A stretch of DNA of 64,000 nt from an uncultured Eubacteriales bacterium (GCA_964440805.1 CAYTTR010000009.1:1658-65657); one strand, 5' to 3'; numbered from the stretch's first letter, positions 360-61,771 are shown. Made by a program: numbers and translations. Notes: generated by a model from the sequence alone, not told the origin.

Positions 360-1049
360 ATGAAATTCGGTGTAGTTGTATTTCCCGGTTCCAATTGTGA
401 TTATGATACATATCATGTAACTAAAAAAGTTTTCGGTCAGGATACAGTTTTTCTCTGGCATAAAGATCATGACCTGCAAAAAGCGGATTGTTTAATTCTG
501 CCCGGTGGATTTTCTTATGGAGATTATCTCCGTTCAGGGGCTATTGCCAAATTTTCTCCTCTAATGCAAGAAGTCAAGGAATTCGCTCTTAAGGGAGGTT
601 TGGTCCTGGGTATCTGTAACGGATTTCAGGTCCTTCTTGAACTCAACCTTCTTCCAGGAGCCATGATCAGAAACAAAAACCTCAAGTTTCTTTGCCAGCA
701 AGTTCACCTTCATATTGCCAATTCAGTGACCCCATTTACCAACTCGGGGAAAAAAAGCCAGGTATTGAAAATACCCATTGCCCATTATGACGGCAATTAT
801 TATGCTCCACCTGAAACCCTGACCGCTTTGAAAAAGAATAATCAAATTGTTTTCCAATATTGTGACTCAGAAGGCCAGCTCACTGAAAAATCCAACGTAA
901 ACGGCTCCCTGGAAAACATCGCCGGTTTGATAAACAGAGAAGGAAACGTTTTGGGTATGATACCCCACCCTGAAAGGGCCTCTGAAAATCTTTTGGGAAG
1001 TGATGATGGACGAGTGATTTTCGAATCTATTATTAAATATGTAGGTTAA
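360..1049 (+). CDS. purQ: phosphoribosylformylglycinamidine synthase glutaminase subunit PurQ
   Basis: 229 aa; class I glutamine amidotransferase motifs (GICNGFQ, HPE at C-terminus); purS-purQ-purL order. Confidence 0.9.
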
Positions 1050-1090
1050 GAAGAAATGAGTCAGACTAATAGGAAAGGAAGGAGCTGAGC

Positions 1091-3304
1091 TTGATCGACC
1101 AAAAGATAATCAAGGACCACAACCTGACAGAAGAAGAATTCCAAAAAATAGTTGAACTTATCGGCCGCGAACCAAACCTGACCGAGCTGGGAATATTTTC
1201 TCTTATGTGGTCAGAGCACTGCAGCTATAAAAGCTCCAAGATTCATTTGAAAAAATTCCCAATTTCCGGGGAAAGAGTGATTCAAGGACCGGGAGAGAAT
1301 GCAGGTATTATCGATATCGGTGAGGGAATGGCGGCTGTTTTTAAAATTGAATCCCACAACCATCCTTCTTTCATAGAGCCCTACCAGGGAGCAGCCACTG
1401 GGGTAGGAGGCATTCTGAGGGATATTTTCACCATGGGTGCCCGGCCTATAGCTCTTCTGGATTCTCTGCGCTTCGGTCCTCTTGAAAACCAGAAAAACAA
1501 AGTAATTATGGAGGGTGTGGTTTCAGGCATATCAGGTTACGGCAACTCTACCGGTGTACCTACCGTAGGTGGTGAAGTCTACTTTAATAAATGCTATTCC
1601 CTGAATCCTTTAGTCAATGTTTTTTGCTTGGGATTGGCCAGAAAAAATAAAATTTTTTATGCCAAGGCTGAAGGTATTGGAAATCCGGTGCTTTATGTAG
1701 GCTCTAAAACTGGACGGGATGGAATCCATGGAGCCACCATGGCCTCAGCCGAATTCGACGATGATTTCGAACAAAAACGGCCCAATGTTCAGGTAGGAGA
1801 TCCATTCAAGGAAAAACTTCTCCTGGAAGCCTGCCTGGAAATCATGGCCAAAGACCTGATTATCGGCATTCAGGATATGGGAGCAGCCGGCCTTACCTGT
1901 TCCACCACAGAGATGGCCTCAAAATCCGGGGCTGGAATCGAAATCGATCTTGACCTGGTCCCTCAAAGGGAAGAAGACATGACCCCGCACGAAATCATGT
2001 TGTCCGAATCTCAGGAAAGAATGCTTCTGGTGGCTAAGAAAGATAAAGTGGAAGAAATCCAGAAAATCTTCTCTAAATGGGATCTTGATGCAGTAGTAAT
2101 CGGCAAAGTGGTGGAAGGTGGACAGTTGAAAGTCAAATATAAAAGCCAAGTTGTAGTGGATATTCCCGTGAATGCAGTGGTCAATCTTTGTCCGGTTTAC
2201 CACCGGGAAGGGAAAGAACCTACAGAGAGAAAAGCTAATGTCCTGACCAAGCTCCCTCCTGCCCCAATCAATCTCGAGCAAGACTTCCTCCGTCTTCTTT
2301 CTTCTCCCACCATTGCCTGCAAAGAATGGATCTACAGACAATACGACCATATGGTTCAAATAAATACGGTTTTTCTTCCCGGAGCAGATGCTTCCTTATT
2401 ACGCTTGAAAGGAAAGAAAAAAGCTATCGCTATATCCCTTGACGGCAATTCCCTTTACTGCCGTCTTGAGCCAAAAAAAGGTGGTAAAATTGCGGTGGCC
2501 GAAGCCTGCCGGAATCTGACTTGTGTCGGAGCCTACCCGGTAGGAGTTACCAATTGCCTGAACTTTGGTAATCCCGAGAAACCGGAGGTCATGTGGGAAT
2601 TCAAAGAAGTTGTGGAAGGAATAGCCGAAGCCTGCCGGGATTTCAATATTCCGATAACCGGCGGGAATGTCAGCTTCTACAACGAAACTGGAGGAAAATC
2701 AATTTTCCCTACCCCCGTAGTTGGAGTCGTTGGTCTAATCGATGATATCAAGCTTACGGTTGATCCTGGTTTTAAAGAAGAAGGAGATTTTATCTTTCTT
2801 ATCGGAAACACCAGGGAAGAATTGGGAGGTTCAGAGTACCTCAAAGAAATTCACAGACAAGAACTGGGGCCAGTTCCGGAAATTGACCTGGAACTGGAAA
2901 AGAAAGTTCAGTTGCTTTGTCGACAAGCTATAAATAAAAAGCTTCTAAGGTCTGCCCATGATCTTTCTGAAGGAGGTCTGGCTGTAGCAATTTCAGAGAG
3001 CTGCTTCTGGAGTCCCCGGAAACTTGGCTCCACCATTTACCTTGAACCTGATCAACTGGCACATGTTTTTCTCTTCAGTGAAAGCCAATCTCGCCTTCTT
3101 GTTTCATTGAAAAAAGAAAAAGACTTTCTGGCTCTTTCGCAAGAAGTTAGAGTTCCCGTCTCCCGGTTGGGTCAAACGGGGGGAAAAATGATTTCCTTTA
3201 TTCAAGGTGATAAAAGCATTCTCTCTGTGCCAGTGGAACAGGCTTATTTTGCCTGGAAAAATAGCATACCTAATTTATTCAATCTATTGGGAGAAAAGGA
3301 ATAA
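1091..3304 (+). CDS. purL: phosphoribosylformylglycinamidine synthase subunit PurL (FGAM synthase II)
   Basis: 737 aa; TTG start with AGGAAGGAG SD; two AIR-synthase-related repeats typical of small PurL. Confidence 0.9.
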
Positions 3305-4861: not shown

Positions 4862-5200
4862 ATCACATTTCAGTCTATTCCGTCTATCTGGTCTATTTGG
4901 TCTATTTGGTCTATTTGGTCTATTTAGTCTGGATAGGGCAAGACAAGAGAGAAAAGCGAGACGAGCGAGAAAGAGAAGCGTTACTTGCGTTTATTGAGTT
5001 ACTTGCGTTCTTTGTGAGCGACCGTAGGGAGCGTGGCGATCCCAAATTCGTCCGGGAAGGGAAAAGAGAGGCGTTTCATTCTGCCTTTCCCGGTTTATTA
5101 GTAGATTGCCGCGTCACTCGGCTACGCCTCGTTCCTCGCAATGACGGAGCGTCATTTTCATTGCTTGAGTGTGGTAAGCTTGACATGGGGAATTAGCTTG
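4862..5200. repeat. repeat-rich GC-elevated intergenic element, family copy A (5x GGTCTATTT tandem repeat, purine-rich GCGAG block, duplicated GTTACTTGCGTT motif)
   Basis: Tandem 9-mers at 4885-4930; shares ordered blocks (gtctattc ... gcgag/gaagag ... gcgtt-act-tgcgtt) with 6588-6790 and, inverted, 25025-25397. Confidence 0.4.
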
Positions 5201-5329: not shown

Positions 5330-6586
5330 ATGAACGAAGTTGGAAAACAACTGGATTACCTCAAAAAAGGATGTGTGGATATCATTCAGGAAGAAGAATT
5401 CAAGTCAAAAATTGAGAATTCTTTGAAAGAAAAGACACCTTTGCGGATTAAGGCAGGATTTGATCCCACTGCTCCTGATATCCATTTAGGTCATACCGTC
5501 TTGATCCGTAAAATGAAACACTTTCAGGATTTTGGCCATGATGTAATTTTTCTCATTGGTGATTTCACCGGACTAATCGGAGATCCTTCCGGAAGATCTG
5601 CGACAAGGCCGGCTATGACCAGGGAACAAATAAATGAAAACGCCGAAACTTACAAAGAACAGATCTTCAAGATTCTGGATCCAGATAAAACTATAATTGA
5701 TTTCAACTCCCGCTGGCTGGCAAAATTGACAAGCTTTGATATTATCAATCTGTCTGCCAAGTATACAGTTGCCCGGCTTCTGGAAAGGGATGATTTTTCC
5801 AGAAGACTAAAAAACGGCCTTCCCATCTCAGTTCATGAACTTCTTTACCCTTTAATGCAAGCCTATGATTCAGTAGCCCTGAAGGCAGATGTGGAGCTGG
5901 GAGGCACTGACCAGAAATTCAACCTGCTGGTAGGAAGAGAGATTCAAAGGGAATTCGGCCAGGAACCTCAGGTAGTAATGACCATGCCTCTTTTAGAAGG
6001 ACTTAACGGAGTTGAAAAAATGAGCAAGTCACTCCAGAATTATGTGGGAATCACTGAAGCTCCTGAAGAAATGTTCGGTAAATTAATGTCTATTTCCGAT
6101 GAATTAATGTTCCGTTATTACGAACTTCTGACAGACATACCCCTTTCTCAAATAGAACAATTGAAAGCTGATATTCAAAAGGGAAAGGTTAACCCCCGCG
6201 ACCTCAAAACCGGGCTGGCCCGGACTATTGTGGCCGATTTCTGGGGAAAGAAAAAAGCCGAGGAAGCCCGGATGGAATTCGACCGGGTGTTCAAACATAA
6301 AGAGATCCCTTCAGAAGTAAAAGAAATACCGGTCAGCCAACCGGTATACCCTTTGGTGAATCTATTGGTGGAAGAAAAAATCCTGCCTTCCAGGGGAGAA
6401 GCCAAACGGCTGATCCGGCAAGGAGGGATTTACTTAGATGGACAGAGGGTCGATGATATCGACATCAAAATAGAACTTAAGACCAAAAAGGAAACTATTC
6501 TCAGGATTGGAAAAAGAAAATTCTTCAAACTGGTTTTTGGGGACGTTCCCCAAAGGGACACCCCTTTCCCTGAAGAAAAACAATAA
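5330..6586 (+). CDS. tyrS: tyrosine--tRNA ligase TyrS
   Basis: 418 aa; class I HIGH (HLGH) and KMSKS motifs; C-terminal S4 domain; last ~15 codons are encoded by a REP-like repeat. Confidence 0.9.
6539..6570 (+). repeat. REP-like dispersed element copy 1 (GGGGACGTTCCCCAAAGGGACACCCC) inside tyrS 3' end
   Basis: Near-identical 26-mer also at 61738-61771, variant at 29883-29914 and reverse-complement tandem at 29995-30033. Confidence 0.5.
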
Positions 6587-25024: not shown

Positions 25025-25397
25025 ATTTACTTCCTCCCTTCCCCTGTTTTATGCCGGGAAAAAGAATCAAACCATTAATTGAAAATCTTAATAGTCTCCC
25101 CACCAGTTCTCTTATCTTCTCGCCCACCTATCTTGTTTATCTTGTTTATCTTGTTTATCTTGTTTATTTAGTCTCACTTATCTCGCCAGCCTCGCCTTTT
25201 CCAGCCATTTATGTTAGACAAACCAAATAAATCCAACAAACGTTATTAACGCAATGAACTTTTCTTTCCCCTTTAGCTCGACTCCTTTTATTTAGCTGAA
25301 TTAACCGAATAGACTGAGTAGACTAAATAAACCGAACAACTGAATCAACTGAATAGACTTAACAGACATTCTTTCTTTTAAATTGATTCTGCTTAAT
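25025..25397. repeat. repeat-rich intergenic element, family copy C (4x CTTGTTTAT tandem repeat) in the nrdJ leader
   Basis: Tandem 9-mers at 25131-25166; shares AATCAACTGAATAGACT, GGTTTGTCT and AGGCGAGGCTGGC blocks (inverted orientation) with copies A and B. Confidence 0.4.
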
Positions 25398-28285: not shown

Positions 28286-29460
28286 TTCTCCTCCTCCAAG
28301 TACTCCGAATACAGAGGCGACATCTGTCTCAGTCTTTCAATAATGGGAGGAAAGACTTCCAGGAGATAATCTATGTCTTCCCTTGTATTTTCCTCCACAA
28401 AACTGAACACCAAAGAACCCTGGGCCACAGAATGATCCAGTCCCATGGCCAGAAGAACATGAGAGGCTTTTAGGGCTCGGGAAGTACAGGCTGAGCCGCT
28501 GGAAGCTGCGATTCCCTTCATATCGAGATTGAGCAACATAGCCTCTCCTTCAACAAAACGCACACAAAAACTGGCATGGTGAGGAAGCCTTCTTTCAGGA
28601 TGCCCGGTCAGAATAACATGGTTAACTTTTTTGGGAAGAAGTTTGATCAAACGATCGCGAAGAGGAAGAATATTTGTTTCTCTTTCCTTCATCCTCTGCT
28701 GGGCAAGTTCTGCAGCCCGGCCCATCCCAACTATTCCAGCCACATTTTCAGTTCCTGCCCGGAGGCCACTTTCCTGGATTCCTCCATGAATCAAAGGAAT
28801 TATTCTGGTTCCTTTTTTTATAAAAAGAGCAGCTGCTCCCTTAGAACCATAGAACTGGTGACCAGCCAAACTCATTGCATCAACCTTCAAGTTTCGTACA
28901 TCAATGGGAATATTTCCAGCAGCTGCTACGGCATCAGAGTGAAAAAGAACTTCCTTCTCCTGACAAACAGCAGCAATTTCTTTTACGGGCTGACTGGTGC
29001 CAACTTCACTGTTGGCCGTCATTACCGAAACAAGGATGGTATCAGGAGTAATCATTTTCTCTACATCTTCGGGATCAATCAATCCATGTGAATCACAAGG
29101 AACATGACTCAACTTAAATCCCATTTTTTCAAGCTGGAGGCCTGAGTGCAGAACAGATTGATGTTCAATAGAAGAAAGTATAATATGATTACCTTTCTTC
29201 CGATTAGCCAAGGCAAGCCCTTTTATGGCCATGTTATTGGACTCAGAGCCGCTGGAAGTAAAATATATCTCTTCGGGCTTGGCTTTTAATAACCTGGCGA
29301 CTTTTTCCCGGGCCTGTTCTATAGCCTTGTAAGCTTGCTGGCCAAAGGAGTGGAGACTCTGTGGATTACCGAAATGATTATTGAGATAAGGAACCATCGC
29401 TTGCCCTACCTCTTCTGAGATAGGTGTAGCAGCGATATGATCGAAATAAATCCTTTTCAT
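28282..29460 (-). CDS. iscS: cysteine desulfurase IscS/NifS
   Basis: 392 aa; class V aminotransferase fold; PLP Lys region and catalytic SSGSACTS loop. Confidence 0.85.
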   Translation of the reverse strand: MKRIYFDHIAATPISEEVGQAMVPYLNNHFGNPQSLHSFGQQAYKAIEQAREKVARLLKAKPEEIYFTSSGSESNNMAIKGLALANRKKGNHIILSSIEHQSVLHSGLQLEKMGFKLSHVPCDSHGLIDPEDVEKMITPDTILVSVMTANSEVGTSQPVKEIAAVCQEKEVLFHSDAVAAAGNIPIDVRNLKVDAMSLAGHQFYGSKGAAALFIKKGTRIIPLIHGGIQESGLRAGTENVAGIVGMGRAAELAQQRMKERETNILPLRDRLIKLLPKKVNHVILTGHPERRLPHHASFCVRFVEGEAMLLNLDMKGIAASSGSACTSRALKASHVLLAMGLDHSVAQGSLVFSFVEENTREDIDYLLEVFPPIIERLRQMSPLYSEYLEEEK

Positions 29461-29492
29461 TTCTTCCTTTGACCTTATCCTTATCCAGATGA

Positions 29493-29711
29493 TTAAACAG
29501 CCACTACTTCTTTAACTTCCGGAATTTCCTTTTTCAGGAGACGCTCAATTCCCATCTTCAGGGTAATCTGGGACATCGGACACCCCCCGCAAGCTCCGGT
29601 AAGTCTGACTTTAACCACTCCATCCTTTACTTCCACCAGCTCTACATCTCCTCCATCAGCTTTTAAGCTGGGACGGATTTTAGCCAAAGTCTTTTCTACC
29701 TGTTCTCTCAT
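29493..29711 (-). CDS. NifU C-terminal-domain (Nfu-type) Fe-S carrier protein
   Basis: 72 aa; GACGGCPMS CxxC motif characteristic of Nfu/NifU-C. Confidence 0.6.
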
Positions 29712-29882
29712 TATTCTGTTCCTCCTAAAAGATAATCCAGGTTAAATAATATCTTATTACTTTTTTATTCCAAACTCCATTAAAACCTGAAGAGTTTTTA
29801 ACTTGTAATCTCCTTCTATTTCTTATCAATTCTATATGATTACTGTATATTTTAAAGCTTACCCATCTTAAAGTCAACAACA

Positions 29883-30033
29883 GGGGACTTTCCCCAAAGG
29901 GACACCTCTTCCCCAAGACATTTAAATTTTTTTTGTTCCTATCTTTTAATAATAATTGATCGTAAGGATAATAAATCTAATTCTCTTCTGGAAAGGGTGT
30001 CCTTTTAGGGAACGCCCTTTAGGGAACGTCCCC
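29883..30033. repeat. inverted pair of REP-like elements (copy 2 forward at 29883-29914; tandem reverse-complement copy 3 at 29995-30033) flanking an AT-rich 80-bp spacer
   Basis: GGGGACTTTCCCCAAAGGGACACCTCTTCCCC versus GGGTGTCCTTTTAGGGAACGCCCTTTAGGGAACGTCCCC; same family as 6539-6570 and 61738-61771. Confidence 0.5.
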
Positions 30034-30034
30034 T

Positions 30035-31372
<1,338 letters not shown>

Positions 31373-44859: not shown

Positions 44860-44935
44860 TGGTGGAGCTGAGGGGATTTGAACCCCCGACCTCTTGACTG
44901 CCAGTCAAGCACTCTCCCAACTGAGCTACAGCCCC
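44860..44935 (-). tRNA. tRNA-Ala (anticodon GGC), CCA encoded
   Basis: Reverse complement is GGGGCTGTAGCTCAGTTGGGAGAGTGCTTGACTGGCAGTCAAGAGGTCGGGGGTTCAAATCCCCTCAGCTCCACCA; cloverleaf folds with a G3:U70 alanine identity pair; anticodon loop CTGGCAG. Confidence 0.85.
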
Positions 44936-60659: not shown

Positions 60660-61734
60660 GAAATCTCTTCCTTCTGATATCAAAAGACCTCAGAAGAAGA
60701 TGGAAAAACCCGGCCGTAATCATTGGATTCATGTTAATTCCCGTTGTCTTTACTTTTATTTTTGGGGCTGTCTTCGGAAAGGAAGTTGAAAAGAGCTTAA
60801 CTCAGAAAAATATTTGATTGAGGAAATTGATTCTGAAGAAAAAGTCAGATCTCGTGTTCTTATTATTCCTGAAGGATTTTCTGATAGAGTTAAGACTGGA
60901 GAAAAAACAAATCTTACCATAAAAAGGCATCCTGATAGCGATCCTCAATATTCACAAGCTGCTTATTCCCACGTGTTGAAGGCCATCATCAAGACGATCA
61001 CGGGACTTGTTGGATCAGTTCAATTAGCAGAAGAGAAAGATGAATCTCAGGGTATTGAAGAGATTTTTTTGAGTTACCAGCCGCAACGATTAATCACTCT
61101 TCGCTCCGAACTGGCAACTCCCAGAAAAGCCATTCCTTCGGGCTATAACCACACCATCCCGGCTATGACCGTTATGTTCATCCTTTTTACTGTCCTTATG
61201 TACGGAGGAATCACCTTGCTTGAAGAAAGAAGACAAGGACAACTTGAACGAATAGTGATCAATCCAATCTCCTTCTCTCTTCTGTTAGCTGGAAAATGGC
61301 TGAGCCGATTTCCTCTGGGAATGTTCCAACTAACAGTGCTCTTTCTTGCAGGATACCTTCTTTTCGACTTTAACCTGGGCTCTTCCCTTTTTTCTGTACT
61401 GTTGATATCCCTATTTTTCTGTAGGGCCATAGCCGGACTTAGCTTGCTTATGGGAAGCCCTTTTGAAAAAGAAGAGCTTTTAGTGGTTGTCAGTATCCTC
61501 TTGGCCAACCTGATGGCCGGATTGGGAGGATGCTGGTGGCCTCTTGAATTAGTTCCACCTGCCATGAAAACCGTGGGCTTATTCTTTCCCACTGGCTGGG
61601 CAATGGAAGCTTTTCACAAGTTGATATTCTTTGGAGAATCATTAACTGGAGTAAAGACTCATATCCTGGTCTTAAGCGGATTCGCCTTGGTTTTTCTTAC
61701 TCTGGCTGTCAAATTTTTCCGCTGGAAAAAATAA
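60657..61734 (+). pseudogene. ABC-2 type permease disrupted by frameshift (TM1 fragment 60657-60815; remainder 60814-61734 in a different frame)
   Basis: N-terminal TM1 ORF ends at TGA 60813-60815; a downstream ORF in another frame carries the extracytoplasmic loop and five TM helices. Confidence 0.5.
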
Positions 61735-61737
61735 AAA

Positions 61738-61771
61738 GGGGGGACGTTCCCCAAAGGGACACCCCCTCCCC
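61738..61771 (+). repeat. REP-like dispersed element copy 4 (GGGGGGACGTTCCCCAAAGGGACACCCCCTCCCC)
   Basis: Sits 4 nt after the ABC permease stop; matches 6539-6564 exactly over the core. Confidence 0.5.

Follow-up and report, generated by a model that had tools for sequence, protein, structure and literature searches.

A pair of short inverted repeats lies between the purA gene and an nfu-like gene in a 64,000-nt stretch of DNA from an uncultured bacterium (the whole of this stretch is referred to below as the window). The question raised by this locus is whether the pair is a structure of local significance at the end of purA, a site for nucleoid proteins, or a member of a dispersed repeat family associated with a transposase. 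The original prediction, which was made from the window alone, had described the repeats as REP-like and BIME-like, and had suggested that they might bind gyrase or IHF, act as a bidirectional terminator or serve as substrates for a RAYT transposase.

The inverted pair in the purA-nfu intergenic region

The pair is situated in an intergenic interval of 323 nt (29712-30034), bounded by two minus-strand genes; nifS- and nifU-like genes are next after the nfu-like gene. The coordinates of the features are collected in Table 1. The sequences and positions originally given for the two copies were found to be correct, and the AT-rich 80-nt spacer between them is present. The flanking genes do lie on the minus strand, as had been stated, but they are not convergent. 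Rather, purA and nfu are arranged in tandem, so the idea of a terminator acting in both directions, between convergent genes, is not applicable to this site.

The repeat unit is approximately 27 nt long (GGGGACGTTCCCCAAAGGGACACCCT). The distal copy forms part of a forward block (GGGGACTTTCCCCAAAGGGACACCTCTTCCCC, 29883-29914, plus strand), differs at three positions from the 32-nt consensus of the window copies, and carries a pyrimidine-rich extension that reaches to about position 29921. The proximal copy contains an internal 14-nt tandem duplication, by which its 5′ module is doubled. The arms of the pair are complementary at 90% of positions over 20 nt and at 75% over 48 nt, and the outer ~23 nt on each side of the spacer are still ~72-75% complementary. 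The minus-strand RNA of the pair is predicted to form a single long hairpin of -59.5 kcal/mol, as compared with a mean of -41.1 kcal/mol for shuffled sequences (z = -4.66; none of 200 shuffles was as stable).

From the order of purA stop codon, repeat and nfu promoter, it is proposed that purA transcripts end in, or traverse, this hairpin of ~150 nt. The distal copy also supplies the sole terminator-like match (GGGGAAAGUCCCC followed by UGUUGUUG) in a scan of positions 29400-30200, and its mini-hairpin could, from its position, represent the 3′ end of purA. A search of the whole window against Rfam at gathering thresholds revealed one tRNA gene (44863-44935, minus strand), which was the only match at that level, and no match at the repeat. 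Models of plant miRNA precursors appeared at relaxed E values, but these matches were sub-threshold, would be given by any long hairpin, and were rejected.

Table 1. Positions of the repeat copies, their component parts and the adjacent genes and promoter in the window
Feature	Position	Strand	Remarks
Solitary copy, exact consensus	6539-6565	+	3′ end of tyrS
nfu-like gene, 72 aa, NifU C-terminal domain	29493-29711	-	Downstream gene; PF01106 on the L082 orthologue
Sigma-70-like promoter TTGACT-17-TAAAAT	29849-29877	-	10/12 matches; for nfu-nifS-nifU; 5 nt past the repeat pair, which it borders without belonging to it
Distal repeat copy, core GGGGACTTTCCCCAAAGGGACACCTCT	29883-29909	+	Antisense to purA and nfu
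13-nt mini-hairpin GGGGAAAGTCCCC of distal copy on the gene strand, then TGTTGTTG	29883-29895	-	Terminator-like
Spacer of head-to-head dimer, AT-rich	29910-29994		Between the two copies
Proximal repeat copy GGGTGTCCTTTTAGGGAACGCCCTTTAGGGAACGTCCCC	29995-30033	-	Sense with purA; begins 1 nt past the purA stop
Proximal copy, Box1 GGGGACGTTCCCT	30033-30021	-	Then AAA
Proximal copy, second, truncated Box1 GGGCGTTCCCT	30017-30007	-	Then AAAA
Proximal copy, Box2 GGACACCC	30002-29995	-	End of copy
purA (adenylosuccinate synthase)	30035-31357	-	Upstream gene; proximal copy adjoins its stop
Solitary copy, exact consensus	61740-61766	+	5 nt past the stop of the ABC-2-type permease ORF 60814-61734

Structure of the repeat unit

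The unit consists of two boxes joined by an A/T-rich linker: Box1 (GGGGACGTTCCCC; variants GGGGACGTCC) and Box2 (GGGACACCCTA; variants GTRCCACCCTA). In the genome under study, a conserved core of ~27 nt is accompanied by the pyrimidine-rich extension of ~12 nt, which is common to all four copies in the window. The unit begins with GGGG and has no GTAG tag; GTAG was observed in that place solely in distant variants located beside divergent transposases (L156 and L160).

A 4-bp stem within Box1 displays modest covariation (GGGG:CCCC is replaced by GTAG:CTAC), with a score of 0.335 as compared with 0.227 for shuffles, none of 500 of which scored as high. A longer fold of the single unit, in which an outer GGG:CCC pairing is combined with an inner GTYCC:GGRAC pairing, is plausible by eye and is found in some minimum-energy folds, but its covariation was not above that of shuffles. 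The short 5′ stem is preferred to this longer fold on the basis of its modest covariation support. Some variants of the repeat family have no fold at all.

Duplication of Box1 is not peculiar to the proximal copy. It recurs beside transposase genes in L102/L103 and in L163, and in the repeat of a 99%-identical strain (L084) the duplication differs slightly, being an intact one of 16 nt in which GGGGACGTTCCCTAAA is present twice. The whole unit is doubled in L088 and L157. The independent duplications of Box1 suggest, on sequence grounds, that it is a separable recognition module.

Other copies of the repeat in the window

Four copies of the repeat are present in the window, at three intergenic or gene-end sites. 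The two that lie outside the purA-nfu interval, at 6539 and 61740 (both on the plus strand), are identical to the consensus GGGGACGTTCCCCAAAGGGACACCC, and both are found in the sense orientation at the 3′ ends of genes. One motif pattern was observed five times in the window, as compared with 1.58 expected occurrences, and another six times, with 0.43 expected; neither count was attained in any of 100 shuffles.

The first stop codon of the tyrS ORF (5330-6586) lies beyond the repeat, and the reading frame passes through that copy, so that some 15 residues are added after the normal end, ...KRKFFKLVF. Apparently, the original tyrS stop codon was replaced by insertion of the repeat. The window also contains tandem arrays with 9-nt units that are unrelated to the repeat. 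One is situated just upstream of tyrS (4873-4930, GTCTATTTG, ~6.4 units), and the others are found at 25129-25167 (TATCTTGTT, ~4.3 units) and 25296-25367 (CTGAATAAA-type, ~7 units).

Distribution and arrangement of the repeat in other genomes

The homologues of its PurA protein place the window in the Aminicenantes/Acidobacteriota. An exact 23-mer from the repeat (GGGACKTTCCCYAAAGGGACACC) was found in at least 71 stretches from GTDB, in which each species is represented by one genome. With more than 70 exact matches in other genomes and two further copies in the window, it is apparent that the motif is confined neither to the pair nor to the window. Because the genome scan was conducted by exact match, only conserved copies would be detected by it. 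Among the matches listed, the MAGs containing the 23-mer are labelled Aminicenantes, Omnitrophota, Candidatus Desulfaltia (Thermodesulfobacteriota), Planctomycetes and 'Eubacteriales', with two labelled archaeal; these labels were used at face value. The repeat may be present on several contigs of one MAG, and at least 14 stretches derive from the Desulfaltia MAG. The two archaeal-binned contigs with the exact 23-mer are L003, from a Methanosarcinales-labelled MAG, and L061, from an 'uncultured archaeon'; these occurrences could reflect either mis-binning or transfer between domains. The 23-mer was absent from the viral contigs scanned, and a literature search for the exact sequence of the repeat yielded no match.

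When as many as four errors were allowed, 119 copies were identified in the 23-mer loci. The sequences flanking the copies diverge abruptly beyond ~26 nt. Approximately half of the copies are solitary. The neighbouring, non-overlapping pairs were without exception arranged with a plus copy followed by a minus copy (30 of 30), that is, head-to-head, their GGGG ends facing outward and the copies 6 to 163 nt apart, and no direct-repeat pairs were observed among these 30. The bias in pairing orientation that would be anticipated for REP-like elements is therefore clearly present.

Additional sequences were noted next to some of the copies. In certain Aminicenantes MAGs (L048, L052 and L059), a recurring block, ...ATCATAGCATACTG, is found immediately 5′ of the repeat, and TCCGTTTCAATCCGTCAA is situated upstream of the repeat in both L035 and L056, which are labelled as belonging to different phyla. 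These blocks may represent composite repeats or additional repeat families.

A Y1 transposase associated with the repeat

A RAYT transposase had been named as a possible partner of such repeats. No homologue of the transposase described here was identified within the 64-kb window, but a Y1 gene bracketed by the repeat was found in L020, L026 and L049, and in many metagenome loci. In the three former cases, plus and minus copies approximately 700 nt apart enclose one ORF, whose product contains 196 to 202 aa. Y1_Tnp was the only Pfam domain detected in these proteins (residues 12-124, E values of 1e-14 to 3e-18). The best NCBIfam model was REP_Tyr_transpos (NF047646), with scores of 67 to 72 bits, below the equivalog cutoff of 80, and the IS200 model gave scores of 17 to 27 bits.

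Searches of the PDB with the transposase sequence returned nothing meaningful. An AlphaFold model (pLDDT 88.6) was used for fold comparison, and its top match in the PDB was 4ER8, the E. coli RAYT with REP hairpin (E value 2.5e-8, TM 0.76), followed by IS608 and ISDra2 TnpA. The HuH motif, NH(I/V)H, and the Y---NP signature, YIERNP, are invariant, or nearly so, across 31 transposase sequences. The L049 transposase (657-1262, minus strand) contains NHLYF in place of NH[IV]HF, and canonical repeats still flank its gene; to judge from its sequence, this protein may be catalytically impaired.

The transposase family is a large one, with more than 6,500 90%-clusters at E values of 1e-20 or lower and 2,238 50%-clusters at E values of 1e-30 or lower. 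Its members nearly always occur on one contig each, among housekeeping genes, a pattern that fits a single-copy gene better than an insertion sequence. In L049 and L075-L078, which comprise a Desulfaltia MAG and several JGI metagenome contigs, the transposase gene is convergent with tmk, the gene for thymidylate kinase, and overlaps its 3′ end. This suggests that the tmk-adjacent position is conserved in that lineage, and is consistent with vertical inheritance.

The association of the gene with the repeat was also observed in a set of 80 metagenome loci. The strict motif was found upstream in 31 of 72 evaluable flanks and downstream in 39 of 74, and most of the remaining loci contain recognisable variants of the fixed-length 27-nt unit. 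The upstream copy is situated ~120 nt before the transposase start codon, at constant spacing. The downstream, inverted copy contains the transposase stop codon, since the ...CACCCTA end of the unit yields TAG when read on the opposite strand.

Close genes in common between the window and any transposase locus were not found. The few named matches of two protein searches carry Omnitrophota and Deltaproteobacteria labels alone, and none is labelled Aminicenantes or Acidobacteriota. On the interpretation favoured here, the window's genome would still encode a cognate transposase.

The transposases were compared, using blastp, with the published TIRYT and RAYT sequences in the supplement of PMC3733652. 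Identities with the TIRYTs (gbm2474, swd1484, dau2153, pca3049, hch1378, rba2408 and gsu2396) ranged from 33 to 40%, with E values of 1e-24 to 5e-42, whereas identities with the RAYTs of E. coli and P. fluorescens (Pseudomonas) were 20 to 25%, with E values from ~4 down to 1e-9. On the basis of this TIRYT-like identity and of the repeat-bracketed genes, the pair in the window is assigned to the TIRYT-associated dimers, outside the GTAG-REP/RAYT families. The idea of a RAYT substrate thus survives in modified form: REP-like inverted pairs and, judging from the protein sequences, a RAYT-type partner are found, but the partner belongs to the TIRYT branch and the GTAG tag is missing. With a probability of roughly 0.75, we consider the feature to be a REPIN-like dimer in which two copies of a short, non-autonomous, TIRYT-associated repeat are arranged head-to-head.

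A mechanism may be proposed for such a repeat. A clade of single-copy, IS200-like Y1/HUH transposases of the TIRYT branch would be its partner, their own genes being bracketed by inverted copies. If E. coli TnpA-REP and the TnpA proteins of IS608 and ISDra2 are taken as models, the repeat would be recognised by the transposase as single-stranded DNA and mobilised in that form. The elements recognised would be the small 5′ stem-loop, GGGG-ACGTT-CCCC, and the conserved 3′ box, GGGACACCCT. The HUH/Tyr active site would cut and rejoin DNA at the repeat, so that copies spread without target-site duplication, the dispersed ones being mobilised in trans. Copies are enriched directly 3′ of stop codons, in the sense orientation. 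To judge from its position, the ~150-nt hairpin in the window probably provides a 3′-end structure for purA and may function as a terminator or stabiliser.

Comparison with known systems

The TIRtrons, in which a RAYT-like gene encoding a TIRYT is flanked by terminal inverted repeats (TIRs) rather than GTAG REPs, were defined by Di Nocera, De Gregorio & Rocco (2013; PMC3733652). Many of the TIRs share GGGGWSAS, and some constitute dispersed families of singles and dimers; these families are described as no more than moderately abundant, and few of the genomes contain them together with TIRtrons. Most of these transposases were placed by Quentin et al. (2018; PMC6006769) in their TnpA-Y1 subclass 2.1, which in their view probably corresponds to the TIRYTs. 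The Y---NP motif is characteristic of class 2 in that study; subclass 2.1 proteins are described there as having a C-terminal HTH-like tail, and no canonical REPs were found near their genes.

The present system resembles the TIRtrons in several respects. The transposase aligns with the TIRYTs over its whole core, at the identities given above, its single-copy gene lies within inverted repeats at a fixed distance, and the repeats are dispersed as singles and head-to-head dimers. Box2, (A)GGGACAC, or GGGGACAC in L140, L145, L147 and L163, bears some resemblance to GGGGWSAS, and the 5′ end of the unit, GGGGACGT, matches that motif at only six of eight positions. There are also differences. The proteins studied here are shorter, with ~196 aa (range 194 to 202 aa), and are without the last ~40 residues of the HTH-like tail, the alignment ending at ~188 of ~230. 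Aminicenantes, Omnitrophota and the other phyla that host the present repeat were not covered by those surveys. Finally, the present repeat, unlike the published TIR families, occurs at ~4 copies per 64 kb and is near-identical across phyla.

REP-RAYT systems are reportedly known from the work of Nunvar in 2010, Ton-Hoang in 2012 and Messing in 2012 (PDB 4ER8). The REP/REPIN-RAYT systems of Escherichia and Pseudomonas (Bertels & Rainey 2011; PMC3116915) share with the present one a short extragenic repeat, its frequent pairing into inverted doublets from which a long hairpin can form, location after genes, the lack of target duplications, and a single-copy Y1 gene flanked by the repeat (the REPtron layout), in addition to the fold match to 4ER8. 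The 5′ GT[AG]G tag of those systems is, however, absent in the present lineage, and the present transposase is only distantly similar to RAYTs, at 20 to 25% identity and below the NCBIfam equivalog cutoff. Their REPs are imperfect palindromes of 10 to 15 bp, whereas the unit described here is a very short hairpin with a conserved, unpaired box. REPs are, moreover, usually species-specific, and the present repeat is not.

There are likewise similarities to the IS200/IS605 elements and to PATEs, which are their miniature derivatives, in the Y1/HUH fold, the subterminal hairpins, the lack of target duplication and the single-stranded DNA mechanism, which is here an extrapolation. In contrast to IS200/IS605, the gene is single-copy among housekeeping genes and scores poorly with the IS200 model, and a single sequence, present in inverted orientation, forms both ends, where IS200/IS605 elements have a left end that differs from the right.

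Conservation across phyla and history of the locus

Canonical or near-canonical repeats, with no more than two mismatches in 25, are situated beside transposases of many protein clusters, whose pairwise identities extend down to 45% (median 57%). The occurrence of a near-invariant repeat beside such diverged transposases argues for a long-term constraint on its DNA sequence, rather than the recent spread of one element. This near-invariance across phyla is the sole unusual trait of an otherwise ordinary element of the REP/REPIN type.

At the purA-nfu locus itself, a comparison was possible with a syntenic relative, L082/L083, in which PurA is 83% identical and the gene order, porin-purA-nfu-nifS-nifU, is the same. 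The purA-nfu spacer of L082 contains 239 nt and lacks the repeat. The promoter (TTGACA-17-TAAAAT) is conserved, as is the leader. Within the nfu leader of ~135 nt (29712-29848, minus strand), long blocks, such as AAAAAAGTAATAAGATATTATT, are shared with positions 11444-11562 of L082, and the rest of the spacer has diverged; on the strength of this conservation, the leader may be a regulatory 5′ UTR of nfu-nifS-nifU.

From the presence of the repeat in the window and its absence from L082, it follows that the pair was gained or lost after these lineages split. L082, the closest relative without the repeat, has diverged too far for a clean empty site to be recognised. The purA-distal part of the spacer aligns weakly with intergenic DNA of L082. 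The spacers of dimers in general are conserved in neither length nor sequence and, with part of the present one perhaps ancestral, the pair could represent two independent insertions rather than one mobile REPIN.

Alternative explanations

The repeat might instead be chiefly a host-selected element of gene 3′ ends (a hairpin, a terminator, an mRNA stabiliser or a translation-coupled signal), to which the transposase is incidental or of which it is a mere maintainer. One argument for this view is provided by the positions of the solitary copies, 20 of 58 of which start between -5 and +25 nt from a same-sense stop codon, as compared with 6.7% for random non-coding positions (p ~5e-10). The invariance of the 25-mer beside transposases that are 45-57% identical and the long, stable RNA hairpin of the window pair are also in agreement with it, as is the observation that in L082 a different small hairpin occupies the place of the distal copy, before the conserved promoter. 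A lone unit, however, folds weakly, having a 5-bp stem, GGGGA-CGT-TCCCC (z scores for the DNA fold, -0.65 to -2.1), and no U-tract, and many copies point away from genes or sit far from stop codons. Furthermore, the identity of the sequence across phyla could hardly be accounted for unless some protein is dedicated to its recognition, and the repeat brackets the transposase gene at constant distances, like the repeats of REPtrons and TIRtrons. On balance, this explanation is considered improbable.

That the pair is a BIME-like element of chromosome architecture, bound by IHF or gyrase, which the original prediction had named, or by some other nucleoid protein, is very unlikely. The pair is like an E. 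coli BIME in its organisation, an intergenic inverted REP pair with a linker, and the argument for a BIME is confined to that resemblance. It is built from a single repeat type with no Y/Z REP alternation, conserved linker motifs are absent, and the spacers vary freely. As for IHF, no match to the consensus WATCAANNNNTTR, which is that of E. coli, was found in 29883-30033, that is, in the spacer or its vicinity.

The possibility of a classical MITE, derived by deletion from an insertion sequence with a DDE transposase and terminal inverted repeats of ~25 to 30 bp, is largely refuted. The head-to-head layout, with GGGG ends outermost, is what a MITE would present, and terminal repeats that begin with GGGG presumably recall the Tn3 family. 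Target-site duplications are absent, however: for 27 head-to-head pairs, the mean flank repeat was 1.1 nt, as compared with 1.5 nt for mismatched controls. Furthermore, the spacers vary in both length and sequence, many copies are solitary, and the sole gene found between inverted copies encodes a transposase of the Y1/HUH rather than the DDE type.

A local palindromic terminator, arisen by chance or independently and unrelated to mobile DNA, would account for a hairpin in a gene 3′ region, but is refuted by the exact recurrence of the same 23-25-mer at other sites in the window, as well as in unrelated genomes by the dozen.

Implications

The interpretation favoured here, that of a TIRYT-associated dimer, extends transposase-associated REP/TIR repeats to the little-known and uncultured Aminicenantes/Acidobacteriota, Omnitrophota, Thermodesulfobacteriota and Planctomycetota. 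For the TIRYT branch, it supplies a clear and abundant population of REPIN-like repeats, whereas subclass 2.1 was reported by Quentin et al. (2018) to be without REP-like sequences near the gene. The 27-nt unit, with its mini-hairpin and conserved box, represents a compact substrate for the study of DNA recognition by Y1 transposases of the TIRYT branch.

In terms of annotation, the repeat accounts for recurrent conserved blocks of 25 to 40 nt at the 3′ ends of genes in MAGs of this kind, and some copies lengthen ORFs, as in the case of tyrS. For the purA-nfu locus, nothing unusual is implied; the pair sits in the terminator zone of purA, just before a conserved promoter.

The occurrence of the almost unchanged repeat in at least four phyla, beside Y1 transposases of 45-60% identity and in the post-stop sense orientation, might tentatively be attributed either to a conserved recognition module that is kept by way of a domesticated transposase or to repeated transfer between phyla. 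In the former case, the module would be one of protein-DNA (or RNA) recognition, and the hosts would retain the repeat as an element of gene 3′ ends. In the latter, a system composed of transposase and repeat would be moving among anoxic-sediment bacteria of different phyla. If true, either reading would run counter to a strictly vertical, lineage-specific evolution of REPIN-RAYT systems, and the repeats would not constitute a fast-evolving, species-specific REPIN population.
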